Shown: positions 1,747 through 63,166 of the stretch, one piece after another
Position numbering within the stretch: position 1 is the stretch's first letter
Layout: each line of letters starts with the position of its first letter
NCBI GenBank assembly: GCA_964016885.1
Contig: OZ024746.1
Span: forward strand, 1,860,001-1,924,000
From: Eledone cirrhosa
Taxonomy: Eukaryota
DNA length: 64,000 nt
Direction: 5' to 3'
Made by a program: the position numbers and the translations under genes
The notes under the pieces: generated by a model
The model's database searches: none
The model's input: only the letters and a program-made list of their open reading frames with translations
What the model was told of the DNA's origin: nothing

Positions 1747-2047
1747 AATGATACAGTGACAACATGCAGTAATAAATAAGACAAATACAACAATAACAAC
1801 AATATATCCCAAACAACATGCTGCTGATGTGACTAGTTCACTACTTTCTTAGGCTTAAGGCTGTTTTGTCACTTGTTATTTATATAGAGATAAGACGATT
1901 TAGTCCGTGCAGAAGGATTATCAACTGTAAAGAAGTGAAAGAAGTAAACCCTGGTTGGAACTGTACTGAAATATGAAAAGTAATAAAACATATATATATT
2001 ATATATATGTATATATATATATATATATAGTATATATATATATATTA

Positions 2048-2155
<108 letters not shown>

Positions 2156-2233
2156 GTTGTATATTATATATATATATATATATATGTGTATATATATATA
2201 CTATATATATATATATGTAATATATATATATAA

Positions 2234-2270
<37 letters not shown>

Positions 2271-2437
2271 GTATATATATATATATATATATAGTATATA
2301 TTATATATATATTATATATATATATATATATATAATATATATATTATATAGTATATATATATATATATTATATATGATATATATATATATATATATTATA
2401 TATATAAATATATATATATATAATATATAATATATAC

Positions 2438-2476
<39 letters not shown>

Positions 2477-2485
2477 CATATATAT

Positions 2486-2523
<38 letters not shown>

Positions 2524-2674
2524 CATATATAAATTATATATATATGTATATATATATAGTATATATTATATATATATATATATATAATTATATATTATAT
2601 ATATATATATATGATATATATTATATATTAATATATATAAATATATATATAGTATATGTATATATATATTATAT

Positions 2675-2706
<32 letters not shown>

Positions 2707-2732
2707 ATATATATATATATATATATATAAAT

Positions 2733-2810
<78 letters not shown>

Positions 2811-2819
2811 TTATATATT

Positions 2820-2873
<54 letters not shown>

Positions 2874-2919
2874 CTATATATACATATATATATATTATAT
2901 ATACATATATATATATATA

Positions 2920-2998
<79 letters not shown>

Positions 2999-3069
2999 AT
3001 ATACTACATATATATATAATATATATATATATATACACATAATATATATATTTATATATATATATATAC

Positions 3070-3166
<97 letters not shown>

Positions 3167-3179
3167 CATATATATAATA

Positions 3180-3302
<123 letters not shown>

Positions 3303-3322
3303 TATATATATAATACATATAT

Positions 3323-3378
<56 letters not shown>

Positions 3379-3481
3379 CATATAAATATATATATATACT
3401 ATAATATATATATATATATATACATATATATATTATACATATACATATATATATACATATATATATATATAATATATATAT

Positions 3482-3525
<44 letters not shown>

Positions 3526-3954
3526 CATATATATATTATATATATATATACATATATATATTATATATATATACATATAACGAAGGAAGTCCAGAATTAG
3601 CCGTCGAAACGGGCTTGAGCTCAGCTGTCGGGGTCTTACTGGTTCCTATATATACATATATAATATATATATATAACATATATATATATATATTATACAT
3701 ATATATATAATATACATATATATATATATATATATAACATATACATATATACATATACATATAATATATATATATACATATACATATTATATATACATAT
3801 AATATATATACATATACATATATAATATATACATATACATATATACATATACATATTATACATATATATATATACATATATATATATACATATATATATA
3901 TATACATAATAATATATACATATATATATATACATATATATAATACATATATAC

Positions 3955-4037
<83 letters not shown>

Positions 4038-4151
4038 ATATATATATATATATATACATATATCATATATATAAATATATATACATATATATATATATTA
4101 TATACATATATTACATATATATATATATATATATAATATATACATATATAA

Positions 4152-4189
<38 letters not shown>

Positions 4190-4255
4190 ATATATATCAT
4201 ATAATATATATATATACTATATAATATTATATATATATATCATATACATATAATA

Positions 4256-4301
<46 letters not shown>

Positions 4302-4575
4302 CATTTATATATATAATATATACATATATATATAGTATATATACATATTTCGTTTCTGAATTTGTTTAGCAAGATTCTTTATCTGAAATCTGTGTGTTGA
4401 AACCGATATTGTTATACTTTGGGAGGGTCATGTTGCCCATTAAGAAACACACGCACCAGTTGCTTTCACTTCAATTTATATATATATTTATAAATTTATA
4501 AATTTACAAATCTACAAACTTATAAATTTCTGGTTGGTTGGTTGGTTCCACAACCAGATAGTTTGTTTTATATAT

Positions 4576-4620
4576 AGTCATAGTCCTTTCGTCACACACT
4601 CTGTGACCTCTTCAGTGACT
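4576..4620 (-). ncRNA. minimal type I hammerhead ribozyme (inverted copy)
   Basis: Exact reverse complement of 5184-5228. Confidence 0.8.
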
Positions 4621-5183
4621 GGGGATTCCTTCTTTGTTTCTTGTGCCTTTCCTTTCTTCTGTCCCTACGCCATTTTGTTTCTGTGTGTGTTTGTGTTCAT
4701 TTATCTATTTGTTTATTTATTTATTTATTTATTGTTTGGTTGGTTATTTGTTCTATTGTTCTAAAGAATCATCTGTGCTCTACCAACATGCTAAGATAGA
4801 ACCATAGGGGTAAATTAGAGAATATAGAAATAAAAATAGAATCCACACACAGAAAAAGATGCAATGTTTAGGCAAATTACAGAGGCAGTAGAAGCATAAA
4901 AGAATTACAACCAAAATTAAATAGAAAATATGAGTGGAACAGCAACATCACAACTTACAATTAAGAACAAAAGGACAAAATGAAAACACACACACTCACA
5001 TAGAACAAACAACCAACCAACAATAAATAAATAAATAAATAAACAAATAGATAAATGAACACAAACACACACAGACACCCGGATGTGGCGCATGCGCAAA
5101 ACTGAGCACACAACACACACACAGAACAAAATGGCGTAGGACAGAAGAAAGGAAAGGCACAGAAACAAAGAAAGGAATCCTCC

Positions 5184-5228
5184 AGTCACTGAAGAGGTCA
5201 CAGAGTGTGTGACGAAAGGACTATGACT
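5184..5228 (+). ncRNA. minimal type I hammerhead ribozyme
   Basis: Stem I AGTCA/TGACT; core CTGAAGA (5189-5195); one extra G; stem II GTCACA-gagtg-TGTGAC; GAAA; tiny stem III AG-ga-CT; cleavage triplet CUA (site after 5223). Confidence 0.8.
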
Positions 5229-5393
5229 ATATATAAACAACTATCTGGTTGTGGAACCAAACCAACCAACCAGAAATTTATAAGTTTGTAGATTTGTAAA
5301 TTTATAAATATATAATAAATTGAAGTGAAAGCAACTGGTGCGTGTGTTTCTTATTGGCAACATGACCCTCCCAAAGTATAACAATATATATAC

Positions 5394-5461
<68 letters not shown>

Positions 5462-5519
5462 GTACATATACATAATATATATATACATATACATATATAT
5501 TATATAATATACATTATAC

Positions 5520-5552
<33 letters not shown>

Positions 5553-5556
5553 ATAC

Positions 5557-5590
<34 letters not shown>

Positions 5591-5736
5591 ATATATACAT
5601 ATACATATATATATATATATACATTATATAATATATATATATATACATATACATATATATATATACAATATACATATATAATATATACATATACATATAT
5701 ATATATACATATACATATATATATATATACATATAC

Positions 5737-5771
<35 letters not shown>

Positions 5772-5917
5772 CATATATATAATATATATACATATATATA
5801 TACTATATATACATATATATAATATCATATATATACATATATATTATATATATACATATATATTATACATATATATATACATATATATATACATATATAT
5901 AATACATATATATATAC

Positions 5918-5950
<33 letters not shown>

Positions 5951-6013
5951 ATATATATATACTATACATATATATATATACATATATATATACATATATA
6001 TATATATACATAC

Positions 6014-6044
<31 letters not shown>

Positions 6045-6085
6045 CATACATATATATAATATACATATATATACATATATATATA

Positions 6086-7211
6086 TTTTTTTTTTTTATT
6101 TTTTTTTTTTTTTAACCTGTTTCAGCCATCCGGCTGAGGCCATGCTGGGGCACCGCCCTTGTTGCTACACATTTTATCTCCAGCCTGTATAGGGTTGGCC
6201 ACTGGTGTAGGAGGGAGTTTTGTTGCTGCTGCCCTTAGGTTTCCCTCGTTGTCTTGCTGTGGGCTCATCCGGGATCCTGGATAACAAGGTGTCGAGATGT
6301 TTCTTAAAGACATCCACCTCCACATCATGCAAAGTCTCGCAGATGCCTCGGAGCAGCCTGTTGAAGAGTTGAGGGCCCTTGAATCCCAGGCTATTGCAAT
6401 ACCTGCTCCTTATTCTAGATGTGGAAGACGGGACCCTTTTGGCACCACACAGTGACGTCCTGTTCGACGGTTGGTCCAGCTCCCCAATGCCAAAGTTTGG
6501 TGCTAGTCCCTCCAGGATTTTCCACATGTAGATCACTGCGTATCTCTCCCGTCTTCGCTCCAAGGAGGTAGAGGTCAGTTCCTTCCAGCCTCTCCCAAGT
6601 AGCTTGTCTCCCTCATCTTGGCAATCCTCTTGGTGTAGCTTCGCTGGATTGCCTCAAGCTCTGTGGTTAGTTTGACACTATGGGGTGACCACAGCTGGGA
6701 GCAGTAGTCCAGGCGGCTTAGGACAAAAGTCCTCCACAGTGTCAACATGGTGTCTCGATCTCTTGTAAGGAAAGTCCTCAAGATCCCAGCCAGCGAATCG
6801 TCTTACATGCTGTCGCCACCTTCATGATGTGTGAAGAAAAAAGATGCATCATCGCTCATGTCTATGCCCAGGTCTCGTATCGATTTTGACACGGGGATAT
6901 CGGTCCCTCCCTGGTCCTGTGTAGCTGTGTTCCGCTTATATTTGTGTTTGTGTTTTGCAGGTTTGTATTGTAGGGCTTGGAATTTGCCAGCATTAAACTG
7001 CATGTTGTTTTCTTCCGCCCATCTGTATATGGCATCCAGATCCTGCTGTAAGAGGGCAGTGTCAGCCGGGTTTTTGATTGCCTGTGCTACCTTAGTGTCA
7101 TCAGCATAGCTAGTGAGGGATGTTGTTGCATGCACCACAGAGGGCATGTCCGAGAGAGCCACCAAAAACAGTAGTGGTCCCAGGACTGTCCCCTGAGGCA
7201 CCCCAAGGTGC
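6086..7211 (-). mobile_element. 5'-truncated CR1-group LINE (reverse transcriptase C-terminal half, 3' end and poly(A) tail)
   Basis: Motifs GVPQGTVLGPLLF, YADDTKV, LQQDLDAIYRWAEENNMQFN, LDYCSQLWSP, ERRRERYAVIYMWKIL and FKKHLDTLLSRIPDEP across frameshifts. The T-run at 6086-6113 is the poly(A) tail. Confidence 0.92.
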
Positions 7212-7246
7212 ATATACATATATAGTACTATATTATATATATACTA

Positions 7247-7290
<44 letters not shown>

Positions 7291-7317
7291 CTATATATAT
7301 ATATATATATACATATA

Positions 7318-7378
<61 letters not shown>

Positions 7379-7471
7379 CATATATATTAGTATATATTAT
7401 ATACATATATATATATATATAATATATACATATATATATATATATCATATATATATATTATAATATAATAT

Positions 7472-7522
<51 letters not shown>

Positions 7523-7545
7523 TATAATATATATACTATATATAT

Positions 7546-7579
<34 letters not shown>

Positions 7580-7586
7580 CGATATA

Positions 7587-7642
<56 letters not shown>

Positions 7643-7921
7643 CATATATAATATTATATATATTATATATACATATATATATATATATATATGATATACA
7701 TATATACATTATATATATATATTATATACATATATACATATATATATATATACTATACTATATATATATATTATATATTATATATATACATATATATACA
7801 TATATATATACATATATATTATAATATATATTATATATATATATATATAATATATATATACATATATATATATATACATAATTATATATATATATATATA
7901 CTATATATATATATAATATAC

Positions 7922-7958
<37 letters not shown>

Positions 7959-8130
7959 ATATAATATACATATATATATAATAAATATATATATATATAA
8001 TATATATATACATATATATATATACATATATATATACATATATATATACATATATATATACATATATAATATACATATATATTACTATATATATACATAT
8101 ATATATCATATATATATATATACATATATA

Positions 8131-8209
<79 letters not shown>

Positions 8210-8219
8210 TATATATATA

Positions 8220-8286
<67 letters not shown>

Positions 8287-8353
8287 ATATATATTATATA
8301 CATATATATATATATATAAATATATATACTATATATATATAATATACTATATA

Positions 8354-8505
<152 letters not shown>

Positions 8506-8535
8506 AGTATATATATATAGTATATATATATATAG

Positions 8536-8635
<100 letters not shown>

Positions 8636-8680
8636 TTATATATATATACATATATATACATATAATATATATATACATAT

Positions 8681-8718
<38 letters not shown>

Positions 8719-8768
8719 ATACATATATATATACTATATATATATATATATATATACATATAATATAC

Positions 8769-8816
<48 letters not shown>

Positions 8817-8980
8817 TATAATATATAATATATATATATATATAGTATATATATATAATATACATATATATATATATAATATACATATATATATACATAT
8901 ATATATACATATATATATACATATATTATATATATATACATATATATACATATATATATACATATATAATATATATATAC

Positions 8981-9055
<75 letters not shown>

Positions 9056-9073
9056 TATATAATATATATATAC

Positions 9074-9219
<146 letters not shown>

Positions 9220-9279
9220 AATTATATATATATATATATATATACATATATAATATATATATAATATATACATATATAT

Positions 9280-9329
<50 letters not shown>

Positions 9330-9333
9330 TATA

Positions 9334-9370
<37 letters not shown>

Positions 9371-9379
9371 ATACATATA

Positions 9380-9435
<56 letters not shown>

Positions 9436-9468
9436 CATATATACATATATATATATATACATATATAA

Positions 9469-9628
<160 letters not shown>

Positions 9629-9651
9629 CATATATATAGTATATTATATAT

Positions 9652-9760
<109 letters not shown>

Positions 9761-9779
9761 TATATACATATATATATAC

Positions 9780-9810
<31 letters not shown>

Positions 9811-9916
9811 CATATATATATACATATATATATACATATATAATATATATACATATATTTATACATATATATATATATACATATATATATACATATATAT
9901 ATACATATATATATAC

Positions 9917-9963
<47 letters not shown>

Positions 9964-10001
9964 TATATAATATACATATATATAAATATATATATATAAT
10001 A

Positions 10002-10056
<55 letters not shown>

Positions 10057-10181
10057 ATACATATATATATATATATATATATACATATATATATTATATA
10101 TATATTAATATATATATACATATTATATATATATACATACATATATATATATATACATATACATATATAAATATAATATAT

Positions 10182-10332
<151 letters not shown>

Positions 10333-10390
10333 CATATATATATATATATAATATATATATATATAATATATATATACATTATACATATAC

Positions 10391-10423
<33 letters not shown>

Positions 10424-10443
10424 TATATACATATATATACATA

Positions 10444-10669
<226 letters not shown>

Positions 10670-10674
10670 TATAT

Positions 10675-10811
<137 letters not shown>

Positions 10812-10825
10812 ATATATACATATAC

Positions 10826-10905
<80 letters not shown>

Positions 10906-11069
10906 ATATATATACATATATATATAATTATACATATACATAATATATATATATATACATATACATATATATATATATTATACATATACATATAATATAC
11001 ATACATATACTAATATATATATATATATATAATACATATATATATATATATATAATATATATATATACT

Positions 11070-11117
<48 letters not shown>

Positions 11118-11150
11118 AATATATATATCATATATATAATATAATATACA

Positions 11151-11321
<171 letters not shown>

Positions 11322-11417
11322 ATATATATATATATATTATATATACATATATATATATATATTATAATATATATATACATATATATATATATAATATATA
11401 TATACATATATATATAC

Positions 11418-11480
<63 letters not shown>

Positions 11481-11504
11481 ACATATATATATATATATAT
11501 ATAT

Positions 11505-11613
<109 letters not shown>

Positions 11614-36676: not shown

Positions 36677-37755
36677 CATCATCATCATCATCAACGTTTA
36701 ACGTCCGTGTTCCACGCTTGCATGGGTTTGGACGGGGGTTTTCCCACTTGAGGCAAGAGTGATTGTCTTGCTCGCATAGGACTGTCTGGCGGGTTTTCTA
36801 CAGCTGGATGCCCTTCCTAACACCAACCACATTTACAGTGTGGGGCTGGGAGGTTTTTACCGTGTTGCCTACACGGCCACATTACAGCGTGGACTGTGTG
36901 TTTTTTTGTCGTGACACCTACACGATCTCATTTGTTTCGGCCTGGATGTTGTGGCACCAACATAACTTTACATTGAAAGGGGCGGTGTGGATGGGGGGGG
37001 GGGGGGGGTATTTTGTTAGAGATGCCTACTGACTGTAGTAGGTTTTACTTTGTATTTAGGTAAGGCGGGTCTTCTCTATTACTGAGTACCGCCAAAGGTC
37101 TCGGTCCAGTGACATTGTCTAGGAGAAGTGTAAGTGTGTGAGGTCGAAATTTATCAGCTCGTCCCAGGTTTTTCTGGGTCTGCCTACTCCGTAGCTACCG
37201 TCTATCTTTATTGCCCTGCACTTTGTTATACAGCTGTCGTCTTTCATGCGCATCACGTGACCATACCAACGTAGCCTTCTCTCGAGTAAACATCTAATTA
37301 TTTCTAATTTTTTCCTTAGTTCGCTTATGCTTTGCCGTTCACGTATGTTACTATTACACATCCAGCGGAGCATGCAAGCTTCGTTCCTCTCTAGTCTGCA
37401 TATATCCTCTGCACACAATGCCCAGGTCTCACTGCCATGCAACATTGCTGTTCGTATGCAGGCATCATACAGCCTGCCTTTCATTTTTAGGGAGAACCCT
37501 TTAGCGGCTAATAGTGGTATAAGCTCTCTGAACTTTTTCCATCCAGTTCTGACTCTAGCTACTGTACTTTCAGAGCACCCTCCCCCACTGCTGATTTTGT
37601 CACCCAGGTAATGGAAGCTGTCCACTATTTCTATAGAACCCTCTGCGCAGTTGAAGGAGCTAGTATTTTGTGGGCACTTGCTGCTACTTACTGCACCAGA
37701 GCACCGACCACATATAAAATCTATGTTCTTAGTTAGCTTACCTGATGCACAACAT
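36677..37755 (-). mobile_element. 5'-truncated RTE-clade LINE with (GAT)n tail
   Basis: ORF 37119-37769 contains VDSFHYLGD..RVRTGWKKFREL..RLYDACIRTAMLHGSETW..RRLRWYGHVMR..GRPRKTW. (CAT)n at 36677-36692 is the tail. Confidence 0.93.
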
Positions 37756-37999
37756 AATATACTGTACATTTATCTACCTTGATATGAAGTAGTTTATTGT
37801 AAAGTAAATAAGTTGAGGGTTTTGTGTATTAAATGGTGTACATAAGAAATTCTTAAATGAAATTTTCTTCTTAATAGGAGAAAACAAAAACCCAGTTAAA
37901 ATTGTTAAACCCCAGCCAAAGAGTAATTATAAGAAATTAAGAATTAATCTCTCAATGTTAATTTATATGTTTAGAGGACTTATTAGACTTCATCGGCAT

Positions 38000-42950: not shown

Positions 42951-45900
42951 TTTGGAACCTATAACCTAAGTTTGGAACCTATTACCAATCAAAGTTTGGA
43001 ACCTATTACCAATCAACGTTTGGAACCTATTACCAATCAAAGTTTGGAACCTATAACCAATCAAAGTTTGGAACCTATTACCAATCAACGTTTGGAACCT
43101 ATTACCAATCAAAGTTTGGAACCTATTACCAATCAACGTTTGGAACCTATTACCAATCAACGTTTGGAACCTATTACCAATCAAAGTTTGGAACCTATTA
43201 CCAATCAAAGTTTGGAACCTATTACCAATCAACGTTTGGAACCTATTACCAATCAAAGTTTGGAACCTATTACCAATCAAAGTTTGGAACCTATTACCAA
43301 TCAAAGTTTGGAACCTATAACCAATCAAAGTTTGGAACCTATTACCAATCAACGTTTGGAACCTATTACCAATCAAAGTTTGGAACCTATAATCAATCAA
43401 AGTTTGGAACCTATTACCAATCAACGTTTGGAACCTATTACCAATCAAAGTTTGGAACCTATTACCAATCAACGTTTGGAACCTATTACCAATCAAAGTT
43501 TGGAACCTATTACCAATCAAAGTTTGGAACCTATTACCAATCAAAGTTTGGAACCTATTACCAATCAAAGTTTGGAACCTATAACCAATCAAAGTTTGGA
43601 ACCTATTACCAATCAACGTTTGGAACCTATTACCAATCAAAGTTTGGAACCTATAACCAATCAACGTTTGGAACCTATTACCAATCAAAGTTTGGAACCT
43701 ATAACCAATCAAAGTTTGGAACCTATTACCAATCAACGTTTGGGACCTATTACCAATCAAAGTTTGGAACCTATAACCAATCAAAGTTTGGAACCTATTA
43801 CCAATCAACGTTTGGAACCTATTACCAATCAAAGTTTGGAACCTATAACCAATCAAAGTTTGGAACCTATTACCAATCAACGTTTGGAACCTATTACCAA
43901 TCAACGTTTGGAACCTATTACCAATCAAAGTTTGGAACCTATTACCAATCAACGTTTGGAACCTATAACCAATCAAAGTTTGGAACCTATTACCAATCAA
44001 CGTTTGGAACCTATTACCAATCAACGTTTGGAACCTATTACCAATCAAAGTTTGGAACCTATTACCAATCAACGTTTGGAACCTATTACCAATCAAAGTT
44101 TGGAACCTATTACCAATCAACGTTTGGAACCTATTACCAATCAAAGTTTGGAACCTATAACCAATCAAAGTTTGGAACCTATTACCAATCAAAGTTTGGA
44201 ACCTATTACCAATCAAAGTTTGGAACCTATAACCAATCAAAGTTTGGAACCTATTACCAATCAAAGTTTGGAACCTATTACCAATCAAAGTTTGGAACCT
44301 ATAACCAATCAAAGTTTGGAACCTATTACCAATCAAAGTTTGGAACCTATAACCAATCAAAGTTTGGAACCTATTACCAATCAAAGTTTGGAACATATAA
44401 CCAATCAAAGTTTGGAACCTATAACCAATCAAAGTTTGGAACCTATAACCAATCAAAGTTTGGAACCTATTACCAATCAAAGTTTGGAACCTATTACCAA
44501 TCAAAGTTTGGAACCTATAACCAATCAAAGTTTGGAACCTATTACCAATCAAAGTTTGGAACCTATAACCAATCAAAGTTTGGAACCTATAACCAATCAA
44601 AGTTTGGAACCTATTACCAATCAAAGTTTGGAACCTATAACCAATCGAAGTTTGGAACCTATTACCAATCAAAGTGTGGAACCTATTACCAATCAAAGTT
44701 TGGAACCTATTACCAATCAACGTTTGGAACATATTACCAATCAAAGTTTGGAACCTATTACCAATCAACGTTTGGAACCTATTACCAATCAAAGTTTGGA
44801 ACCTATAACCAATCAAAGTTTGGAACCTATTACCAATCAAAGTTTGGAACCTATTACCAATCAAAGTTTGGAACCTATTACCAATCAAAATTTGGAACCT
44901 ATAACCAATCAAAGTTTGGAACCTATTACCAATCAAAGTTTGGAACCTATAACCAATCAAAGTTTGGAACCTATTACCAATCAAAGTTTGGAACCTATAA
45001 CCAATCAAAGTTTGGAACCTATTACCAATCAAAGTTTGGAACCTATAACCAATCAAAGTTTGGAACCTATTACCAATCAAAGTTTGGAACCTATTACCAA
45101 TCAACGTTTGGAACCTATTACCAATCAACGTTTGGAACCTATTACCAATCAAAGTTTGGAACCTATTACCAATCAACGTTTGGAACCTATTACCAATCAA
45201 CGTTTGGAACCTATAACCAATCAAAGTTTGGAACCTATTACCAATCAAAGTTTGGAACCTATTACCAATCAAAGTTTGGAACCTATTACCAATCAACGTT
45301 TGGAACCTATTACCAATCAAAGTTTGGAACCTATTACCAATCAACGTTTGGAACCTATTACCAATCAAAGTTTGGAACCTATAACCAATCAAAGTTTGGA
45401 ACCTATAACCAATCAAAGTTTGGAACCTATAACCAATCAAAGTTTGGAACCTATAACCAATCAAAGTTTGGAACCTATAACCAATCAAAGTTTGGAACCT
45501 ATAACCAATCAAAGTTTGGAACCTATTACCAATCAACGTTTGGAACCTATTACCAATCAAAGTTTGGAACCTATTACCAATCAACGTTTGGAACCTATTA
45601 CCAATCAAAGTTTGGAACCTATTACCAATCAACGTTTGGAACCTATTACCAATCAAAGTTTGGAACCTATAACCAATCAAAGTTTGGAACCTATTACCAA
45701 TCAAAGTTTGGAACCTATTACCAATCAAAGTTTGGAACCTATTACCAATCAAAGTTTGGAACCTATAACCAATCAAAGTTTGGAACCTATTACCAATCAA
45801 AGTTTGGAACCTATAACCAATCAAAGTTTGGAACCTATTACCAATCAAAGTTTGGAACCTATAACCAATCAAAGTTTGGAACCTATTACCAATCAAAGTT

Positions 45901-47815
45901 TGGAACCTATAACCAATCAAAGTTTGGAACCTATTACCAATTAAAGTTTGGAACCTATTACCAATCAAAGTTTGGAACCTATTACCAATCAAAGTTTGGA
46001 ACCTATAACCAATCAAAGTTTGGAACCTATTACCAATCAAAGTTTGGAACCTATAACCAATCAAAGTTTGGAACCTATTACCAATCAAAGTTTGGAACCT
46101 ATAACCAATCAAAGTTTGGAACCTATTACCAATCAAAGTTTGGAACCTATTACCAATCAAAGTTTGGAACCTATTACCAATCAAAGTTTGGAACCTATTA
46201 CCAATCAAAGTTTGGAACCTATTACCAATCAAAGTTTGGAACCTATTACCAATCAAAGTTTGGAACCTATTACCAATCAAAGTTTGGAACCTATTACCAA
46301 TCAAAGTTTGGAACCTATTACCAATCAAAGTTTGGAACCTATTACCAATCAAAGTTTGGAACCTATAACCAATCAAAGTTTGGAACCTATTACCAATCAA
46401 AGTTTGGAACCTATTACCAATCAAAGTTTGGAACCTATTACCAATCAAAGTTTGGAACCTATTACCAATCAAAGTTTGGAACCTATAACCAATCAAAGTT
46501 TGGAACCTATTACCAATCAAAGTTTGGAACCTATAACCAATCAAAGTTTGGAACCTATTACCAATCAAAGTTTGGAACCTATTACCAATCAAAGTTTGGA
46601 ACCTATTACCAATCAAAGTTTGGAACCTATTACCAATCAAAGTTTGGAACCTATTACCAATCAAAGTTTGGAACCTATTACCAATCAAAGTTTGGAACCT
46701 ATTACCAATCAAAGTTTGGAACCTATTACCAATCAAAGTTTGGAACCTATTACCAATCAAAGTTTGGAACCTATTACCAATCAAAGTTTGGAACCTATTA
46801 CCAATCAAAGTTTGGAACCTATAACCAATCAAAGTTTGGAACCTATTACCAATCAAAGTTTGGAACCTATTACCAATCAAAGTTTGGAACCTATTACCAA
46901 TCAAAGTTTGGAACCTATTACCAATCAAAGTTTGGAACCTATAACCAATCAAAGTTTGGAACCTATTACCAATCAAAGTTTGGAACCTATAACCAATCAA
47001 AGTTTGGAACCTATTACCAATCAAAGTTTGGAACCTATTACCAATCAAAGTTTGGAACCTATTACCAATCAAAGTTTGGAACCTATTACCAATCAAAGTT
47101 TGGAACCTATTACCAATCAAAGTTTGGAACCTATTACCAATCAAAGTTTGGAACCTATAACCAATCAAAGTTTGGAACCTATTACCAATCAAAGTTTGGA
47201 ACCTATTACCAATCAAAGTTTGGAACCTATTACCAATCAAAGTTTGGAACCTATTACCAATCAAAGTTTGGAACCTATAACCAATCAAAGTTTGGAACCT
47301 ATTACCAATCAAAGTTTGGAACCTATTACCAATCAAAGTTTGGAACCTATTACCAATCAACGTTTGGAACCTATTACCAATCAAAGTTTGGAACCTATTA
47401 CCAATCAAAGTTTGGAACCTATTACCAATCAAAGTTTGGAACCTATTACCAATCAAAGTTTGGAACCTATTACCAATCAAAGTTTGGAACCTATAACCAA
47501 TCAAAGTTTGGAACCTATTACCAATCAAAGTTTGGAACCTATTACCAATCAAAGTTTGGAACCTATAACCAATCAACGTTTGGAACCTATTACCAATCAA
47601 AGTTTGGAACCTATAACCAATCAAAGTTTGGAACCTATTACCAATCAAAGTTTGGAACCTATAACCAATCAACGTTTGGAACCTATTACCAATCAAAGTT
47701 TGGAACCTATAACCAATCAAAGTTTGGAACCTATTACCAATCAAAGTTTGGAACCTATAACCAATCAACGTTTGGAACCTATTACCAATCAAAGTTTGGA
47801 ACCTATTACCAATCA
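42951..47815. repeat. 24-bp minisatellite TTTGGAACCTATWACCAATCAAMG (~200 copies, 4.9 kb)
   Basis: Directly visible; source of the 1633, 990 and 625 aa repeat ORFs. Confidence 0.98.
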
Positions 47816-61690: not shown

Positions 61691-61851
61691 ATTGGATAAT
61701 GCATCAGAAACTGTACTGTTGCTACCAGGTGTGGAAGCTGGTTCTGATAAAGAGGTTTCTATGGAACCATCTGACGTGGAATTTGGTAAGTTATTAGCAC
61801 AGTCTAATGTCACTAGTTGCCGACATGTTTTATGACACGTGTATTTACAAT
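61691..61851 (-). CDS. RASSF1: RASSF1A/NORE1A-type exon: C-terminal half of the C1 (DAG-type) zinc finger plus a Ser-rich linker
   Basis: cttttacag|AT acceptor (phase 1) and AAT|gtaagt donor (phase 0). Encodes CKYTCHKTCRQLVTLDCANNLPNSTSDG...DALSN, comparable to RASSF1A CKFTCHYRCRALVCLDC. Missed by the ORF track. Confidence 0.9.
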
Positions 61852-61877
61852 CTGTAAAAGAAACAACAACATTGTTA

Positions 61878-63166
61878 TATATACATCACTATATACATCA
61901 TTGTATACATCACTATATACATCATTGTATACATCACTATATACATCATTGTATACATCACTATATACATCATTGTATACATCACTATATACATCATTGT
62001 ATACATCACTATATACATCATTGTATACATCACTATATACATCACTATATACATCAGAAAACAGAACCCAGATCCCCTCAGGGAAATGGCCTTGCTCAGT
62101 ATGTAGGAAAGGTGTAGGTAGGAACTCCATTCTCTGCCCCAAATGCAAACAATGGGTACACAAGAGATGTAGCGGGATCTCAGGAAGCTTAATTAAGAAT
62201 GTAGGATTCACATGCAGCAGCTGTGCTGAAACAGCAAGCAAACAGCCACAGGAAACAAGTACCACCAATCTCTGGGAGGGCCCTGTAGAAACAGTAGACA
62301 GCTTCTGCTACCTAGGTGACCGAATTAGCAACGGAGGTGGGTGCTCAGAAAGTACAATAACTAGGGTAAGAACGGGATGGAAGAAGTTTAGGGAACTACT
62401 ACCACTGCTAGCTGCAAAAGGCTTCTCCCTCAGAATGAAAGGCAGACTGTATGATGCGTGTATCCGAACAGCGATGTTGCATGGTAGTGAGACCTGGGCG
62501 CTGAAGGTGGAAGACTTACGTAGATTAGAGAGAAACAAAGCCTGCATGCTCCGATGGATGTGTAACAGTAATATACGTGAACGACAAAGCATAAAGGAAT
62601 TGAGAGAGAGACTGAGCATAAGAGGAATCAAATGCTGCGTGCAGGAGAGGCGGTTACGCTGGTATGGACATGTGATGCGTATGAAGGATGACAGCTGCAT
62701 AAAAAGGTGCAGAGCACTAGAAGTTGATGGAAACCGCGGAGTGGGGAGACCCAAGATGACTTGGGATGAGGTGATAAAAGCCGACCTTACCCAACTACAC
62801 CTCTCAAAGTCAATGACACACGACCGTGACTTCTGGCGTCACACAGTAATACAGGGTACCCGACCTCCCATGGGTACATGCTGAAGCATATAAACAATAT
62901 GCCCCCCCCCCCCCACCGCAAGGTGGTCGTGGAGGTGCCACGGCAAAAAAGCACCCAGCCCACACTGTAAAGTGGACGTGTAGGCGCCACGAAAAAGCAC
63001 CCAGCACTCACTGTAAATGAGGTTGGTGTTAGGAAGGGCATCCAGCTGTAGAAATCAAGCCAGATCAGTTCCTGTATGAGCAAGGCATGGTCAGCCGACC
63101 AGACACTGCCCACAACAGGACAACCCGTCTAACCCATGCTAGCGTGGAAGAACGGACGTAAAACGG

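Follow-up and report, generated by a model that had tools for sequence, protein, structure and literature searches.

The fold-back at positions 4349-5387 of the window (the whole 64,000-nt stretch of Eledone cirrhosa DNA analyzed here) is most likely the product of one integration of a Penelope-like element (PLE) into a TA microsatellite, in which the two nicked target strands primed reverse transcription at separate start sites (the family has two) of a single template, leaving two copies head-to-head and two opposed hammerheads as a by-product. The double priming is deduced from end products. Two primings on one template fit three observations made across the family: nearly all paired copies have exactly one tail, either arm may be the longer, and paired arms share sequence variants.

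The insert itself is a dead, doubly 5′-truncated mirror-image copy, one among thousands; the locus is of little weight, the family of modest weight. The initial annotation presented the arrangement as something special and possibly new. However, opposed minimal hammerheads have been published (PMC4209133), as have the inverted pLTR and the one-sided tail (PMC3846280; PMC8557442). What is added here is the count of one tail in 37 of 38 cases, together with the variable arm length and the shared variants; a pile-up of arm 5′ ends upstream of the ribozyme core and not at its cut site; and a conserved insert of about 70 amino acids in the reverse transcriptase (RT), which the described clades with a C-terminal endonuclease lack.

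Structure of the insertion

The whole insertion (4349-5387) consists of two 5′-truncated PLE copies lying head-to-head inside a degenerate (TA)n tract, which forms the left (1990-4348) and the right target flank (5384-6086). The left arm, a 5′-truncated copy of pLTR and 3′ UTR (4406-4756, minus strand, 351 nt), is an inverted repeat of 5000-5387 (plus strand, 388 nt; E-value 4e-122). The inverted repeat of about 350 bp proposed initially thus stands; the “245-bp spacer” does not, being a unique middle of 243 nt (4757-4999) by which the right arm extends farther 5′ than the left. That layout also missed a one-sided tail of 57 nt (4349-4405, minus strand), by which the left arm extends beyond the right arm, where the tail has no counterpart. 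In parent elements the tail sequence stands after the pLTR and opens the element body, and it forms the outer of the two 3′ ends of the family. The right arm (3′ UTR/pLTR, 4965-5387, plus strand) ends at the short, untailed 3′ end. Both arms meet in a head-to-head junction (4748-4763) with an 8-bp direct duplication and a 2-bp overlap into the right arm; this junction is unique among the loci examined.

The middle carries the remnant of a GIY-YIG endonuclease domain (4762-4964, plus strand; last 66 codons and stop). As had been read from the sequence, this remnant is frameshifted; it aligns to residues 731-796 of an intact family protein across frameshifts and is broken by three small insertions, which are missing in other copies. 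The left arm has lost 49 nt between short direct repeats and shows seven one-base indels in 269 nt, compared with two in the right arm and 0-2 in 82 other arms. The one-base indels look like local consensus errors in a TA-flanked stretch, and the frameshifts of the remnant may be errors of the same kind. A family boundary at 4762, where 28 of the 29 other best matches start, was discarded: the position is merely the truncation of this copy, and most copies continue into the ORF.

The hammerhead motif

The arms contain the same 45-nt minimal type I hammerhead motif, both pointing outward (5184-5228, plus strand; 4576-4620, minus strand), which agrees with the initial annotation and places A17 at 5223. 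The motif at 5184-5228 comprises a 5-bp stem I, an intact core with an extra base after A9 and G10.1-C11.1, a 6-bp stem II, and a stem III of 2 bp with a 2-nt loop, as is characteristic of minimal type I hammerheads; the cut is predicted after A5223. Scanning the 64 kb for minimal hammerheads gave these two motifs as the only matches. The suggested search with Rfam models was negative, since none of the 59 matches at E≤10 in 3500-6500 was a hammerhead and nearly all fell on TA tracts. Folded in isolation, the motif was no better than its shuffles (z -0.26). Since Rfam is silent and folding is uninformative, the ribozyme call rests on the core nucleotides and on covariation. In 13 hand-picked motifs from related families, both sides change in three of six stem II pairs and in two of five stem I pairs, a score which was reached by 0/500 shuffles, stems from few independent events, and includes one stem I pair broken in 8/13 motifs. 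The stem covariation asked for at the outset is therefore present when sister families are included; within the window's own subfamily no compensatory change was found. Four sequencing runs of other organisms yielded the PLE family in three cases and nothing in one; the three positive runs showed changes in loop II, loop III, the cut site and the stem ends, none of them compensatory.

The identical block containing the ribozyme is 53 nt long, and the longest identical block measures 57 nt (5019-5075). With 14 differences in 334 matched bases between the arms, the chance of a clean 46-nt stretch is about 0.13. Thus, the identity of the ribozyme amid indel-rich flanks, initially taken as a hint of constraint, is within chance and no sign of selection.

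The motif resembles the minimal PLE hammerheads of PMC4209133 in its stem I (4-5 bp there), long stem II, tiny stem III, unpaired base after A9, and G10.1-C11.1. The same source describes hammerhead pairs on opposite strands at distances of 100-700 bp; the window's pair is 580 bp apart. Unlike the motifs described there, the stem III hexamer of the window is an imperfect palindrome, and a dimer needs two G-A mismatches (-3.7 kcal/mol duplex). In the commoner sister variants, a dimeric stem III would need two A-A mismatches (duplex about 0). Three common ribozyme variants of loop III and cut site occur in contig C1, the most frequent of which needs two A-A mismatches as a dimer. In the experiments reported in PMC4209133, a lone minimal motif showed no cleavage, and the review PMC6765202 gives the same account of dimers. 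This speaks against cleavage by a single motif as initially assumed, and the cleavage assay proposed for the monomer would probably be negative. The ribozyme is likely to work only as a same-sense dimer or with the help of protein, in the parent RNA, and it likely does nothing at the window locus.

Head-to-head copies across the genome

A genome search returned 1,594 candidates, the best of the 40 scored having 90-95% identity. The exact 46-nt ribozyme core is present in 3,066 copies, a looser hammerhead motif in 20,893, and a 34-nt 3′-end motif in 22,691, with 0 matches for the reversed control in each case. The two discrete 3′ ends lie 56-58 nt apart, and the extra piece of the tailed end can be recognized as the start of the element body where the pLTR continues into the ORF. 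The exact tail end followed by TA was found 13,436 times and the exact short end followed by TA 11,364 times. When ends were located by motif in 60 loci, TA-rich flanks were present at 49/50 short ends and 43/45 tailed ends, compared with 9% of random positions; the expectation of (TA)n flanks is therefore borne out for 92 of the 95 scored family ends. The family was detected in sequencing runs of other organisms, too.

Neighboring copies within 12 kb, counted for the first 100 ribozyme hits of one contig, were head-to-head in 19 cases, tandem in 5 and tail-to-tail in 0, with about 1 expected by chance. Junctions were then analyzed in the first 60 of 76 clusters in order along one contig, anchored on the exact ribozyme. 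These 60 loci contained 45 head-to-head junctions in 44 loci, every breakpoint pair being different; according to the rule applied, an inverted junction was absent in 16 loci. The head-to-head arrangement is thus the norm of this family. One outer end was not intact at seven of the 45 junctions. Where both were intact (n = 38), 37 had one tailed and one untailed end, a single one had two untailed ends, and none had two tailed ends; 37/38 at even odds has a probability of about 1 in 10^10 (hand calculation). In the 37 pairs, the tailed arm was longer in 17, the untailed in 15, and five were equal. Short overlaps of 1-14 nt were found at 30 of the 45 junctions. Paired arms diverge by 1.4% compared with 2.7% between loci, and they have 117 variant sites in common where 27 are expected (both for the 25 pairs whose overlap sufficed, from 24 loci and the window). 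Several insertions measure only about 550-600 bp and fold back almost symmetrically. The idea that tailed arms are short since the 5′ pLTR is all they copy was rejected, as they reach up to full length.

At least one sister PLE family (L138, L140, L230-L246) has a different hammerhead stem II, the same 5′-end motif, a similar 3′ end, and a tail of its own; L138 is a one-tailed fold-back. Sister motifs lie downstream of endonuclease remnants in two of the nine loci tested (52-63% identity) and are also found in one-tailed fold-backs. In PMC13282606, 31 recently active Penelope-like families are reported for an octopus repeat annotation.

Formation of the fold-back

In the mechanism we favor, both nicked target strands would prime reverse transcription on one template, each strand starting at a different one of the family's two start sites. 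A protein dimer could carry out the double priming, the two variably truncated cDNA ends would be joined by microhomology, and the two opposed hammerheads would remain as a by-product of integration. PMC11167929 reports a PLE protein, predicted to be a dimer, which nicks and extends both target strands; two internal start sites define the tail there, and ribozyme cleavage is not required. However, start-site use is equal on both strands according to the same source, which leaves the differing choice of site per strand unexplained. Age structure, subfamily structure, or gene conversion of the arms at a later time could likewise account for the shared variants.

Self-priming, where a single cDNA or an antisense template would snap back to give the mirror arm, was proposed for rotifer PLEs from palindromic junctions (PMC3846280) and accounts equally well for the shared variants and the short junction overlaps. 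Yet snap-back of a single tailed cDNA predicts an untailed arm nested in the tailed one, and the untailed arm is the longer in 15/37 pairs and in the window. The version with an antisense template, also from PMC3846280, is still compatible with these counts, and taking both versions together we regard self-priming as unlikely. An artifact, whether of assembly or in the form of a long-read fold-back chimera, would fit the left arm, where the excess of one-base indels given above indicates that local base quality is probably poor, and no read or contig of two public runs, in which repeats were skipped, bridges the window junction. Nevertheless, the arms have different family-typical ends, a 49-nt deletion, and unlike flanks, none of which a mirror read would produce; contigs from the public runs contain other head-to-head joints of the family; and the recurrence of the layout in 44/60 loci makes an artifact, considered as a caveat in the initial annotation, hardly credible. 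Even less probable is a non-autonomous fold-back unit, MITE-like or retrozyme-like, which moves as a whole: the near-symmetric short fold-backs would suit such a unit, but no two of the 45 junctions examined share a breakpoint pair, the window junction recurs in 0/29 other best matches, and tandem ribozyme monomers are absent at the window locus. We prefer two primings on one template for the fold-back in the window.

Arm 5′ ends and a putative promoter

Among 100 arms anchored on the 3′ end, of which 84 had a scorable 5′ end, 12 begin inside a zone of 40 nt, some 50-85 nt upstream of the ribozyme core. This is 2.6 times the rate downstream (P 0.003, a generous value, as the zone was chosen after viewing the data and includes a CA-rich run) and seven times the rate upstream. 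Further head-to-head joints at 5102-5139 were detected in the contigs of one public run. Near the ribozyme cut site, two 5′ ends were seen with 1.0 expected, i.e., no excess. The pile-up zone likely marks the RNA start, and transcription would begin near 5110-5135. The likely pLTR promoter zone (5088-5136, plus strand), around which these 5′ ends accumulate, contains a GC palindrome at 5088-5097 and, at 5127-5136, a 10-nt motif kept in a sister family; we take these elements to resemble NRF1 and YY1 sites. For Penelope, an internal promoter in the pLTR is described in PMC2377424.

The parent element and its reverse transcriptase

A full parent, as the genome-wide search was meant to reveal, exists in the form of PLE copies with RT and GIY-YIG. 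Near-complete copies have a unit of 4,091 nt from one short end to the next, and locus L031 has an open stretch of 916 codons with RT and C-terminal GIY-YIG in one frame. Matches to the RVT_1 and GIY-YIG families were weak and below the Pfam cut-offs. A structure model based on 82 sequences (pLDDT 92) is closest to telomerase RT (Z 14.7, rmsd 4.0, 384 aligned), its C-terminus to the GIY-YIG domain of I-TevI (Z 10.0, rmsd 2.2, 90 aligned). The closest named protein is from Octopus vulgaris (69%), a PDB sequence search returned three bacterial defence RTs only, and the ESM Atlas contained unnamed eukaryotic RT clusters.

Between RT motifs A and B′, the parent has a conserved insert of about 70 aa (L031:1372-3759, minus strand, residues ~271-345), which has conserved residues of its own and is confidently modelled. 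The distance from A to B′ is 134 residues in the parent. Of 120 relatives, which are mostly unnamed proteins and were found by a query containing the insert, 77 could be scored, and in 76 of these the distance is 130-138. Counted by eye in Fig. S1 of PMC8557442, this distance is ~63-66 in Penelope, Neptune and Nematis, ~87 in a Naiad, and ~121 in human TERT; the canonical PLEs with C-terminal endonuclease presented there have no insert at this place. The TERT of a beetle scored like other TERTs in the fold search, so this search does not decide whether the insert is homologous to the IFD of TERT. In the literature searched, no other paper on such an insert in PLEs with C-terminal endonuclease was found; the family or the insert may already be recorded in Repbase. 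A motif search in the supplement of PMC8557442, where long runs are abridged, revealed no listed element with the RT motifs of the family. Upstream of the RT, the ORFs of L033 and L031 contain an asparagine/threonine/histidine-rich low-complexity stretch from AAC-type repeats, which recalls the N-rich inserts of rotifer PLEs (PMC3846280).

Classification of the family

The parent is an endonuclease-positive PLE, its clade being unplaced in a comparison with named clades via published figure rows. It combines a telomerase-like RT and GIY-YIG in one frame with partial-tandem pLTRs, an inverted 5′-truncated copy and an optional tail, and protein alignment A1 agrees with the description of such elements in PMC8557442. 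With the canonical clades (Penelope/Poseidon, Neptune, Nematis; PMC8557442, PMC3846280) it shares the order of RT and GIY-YIG in one frame, partial tandems, head-to-head inversion, a one-sided tail, a pLTR hammerhead and a microsatellite bias. It differs from them in its longer tail (56-58 nt compared with 30-40), in a one-tail pattern counted as near-strict (37/38), and in the ~70-aa insert between motifs A and B′.

Penelope/Poseidon have no CX2-5CxxC linker before the endonuclease, whereas the window family does. The gap between the linker and the GIY-YIG core is ~25-30 residues in Neptune (Fig. S2, PMC8557442) and seven in the parent (5-11 in 80 of 95 relatives scored). The Nematis rows of Fig. 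S2 come closest in their CX4CxxC linker with a short gap, CCHH and C-terminal endonuclease, as well as in the spacing of the C-terminal R...E...N (by eye, Fig. S2 of PMC8557442). However, A and B′ are 134 residues apart compared with ~66 in the Nematis rows of Fig. S1, where no insertion is present, and DKG reads DKS in the window family. Hydra elements have no CCHH, a CxCX5C linker, DKT, a length of <3 kb and no IFD, while the family has CCHH, DKS and a 4.1-kb unit. Poseidon PAc of Anolis (PMC11167929) likewise has AT-rich targets, two 3′ ends which define the tail, and no reported sign of ribozyme-cut RNA as template; it has no zinc-finger linker, and its ribozyme and start codon overlap, unlike in the window family, whose ribozyme is located about 160 nt upstream of that family's short end. 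Naiad/Chlamys elements and telomerase RT (insertion in the fingers) have extra sequence at the same place of the RT, and Naiads also favor (TA)n. Nevertheless, Naiad/Chlamys have an N-terminal endonuclease, no canonical hammerheads, and inserts of 20-40 aa, and the family insert is longer than that of human TERT as counted from Fig. S1 of PMC8557442. Non-LTR retrozymes are tandem non-coding hammerhead monomers; here, tandem monomers are absent and a coding remnant is present.

As a tentative proposal, which is more doubtful than the origin of the fold-back given above, the family could belong to an unclassified PLE lineage of marine invertebrates with a Nematis-like endonuclease and a telomerase-sized fingers insert, whose one-tail rule would be the footprint of a dimer making two copies of one RNA from two start sites. 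The origin of tandem and inverted PLE structures and the microsatellite bias are named as open questions in PMC8557442. If the footprint reading is true, it would explain the inverted repeats of PLEs in general; if the insert marks a real clade, this bears on how often fingers insertions were gained or lost between PLEs and telomerase. As the family is young and has over 10,000 copies per end type, genome-wide counts can address the one-tail rule, the use of a single template and the part played by the ribozyme.

RNA folding and possible regulation

For the whole insert, folding predicts a single long hairpin (-569 kcal/mol) in which the ribozyme pairs completely with its antisense copy, just as the initial annotation had supposed. 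According to this model, any read-through transcript, in which the antisense arm comes first, would bury the ribozyme in the hairpin; a transcript that starts at the promoter of the right arm itself would carry no antisense partner. A locus kept as a regulatory hairpin, which would keep the ribozyme inactive and supply Dicer or ADAR with substrate, would be consistent with this fold and with the siRNA from inverted Penelope copies in Drosophila (PMC3681739). We consider this very unlikely, given that the locus is one of many like insertions, the identity of the two ribozymes does not exceed chance, cleavage would in any case not be expected of a lone minimal motif, and no transcript of the locus was found. 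In two RNA-type runs, no contig fell on 4560-5260 and few of the words of this stretch were present, which is no proof of silence. The dsRNA idea for inverted Penelope copies as such is sound but already known (PMC3681739). About 20,900 related hammerhead motifs, many in fold-backs, represent a large potential source of dsRNA, although none was observed in this analysis.

Other features of the window

Repeat-finder output for the window is dominated by TA repeats. Very long degenerate (TA)n tracts reach 4.4 kb (e.g., 7212-11613), and short non-TA islands occur inside such tracts (e.g., 3580-3646). Translations of the open stretches 6110-6653, 37122-37769 and 61816-62838, judged by eye, appear remnant-like of other retroelements. 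Finally, a 24-bp unit is repeated 202 times at 42968-47815, where the plus strand reads open for 1,656 codons and encodes an 8-residue repeat; this array is probably a minisatellite without stops.
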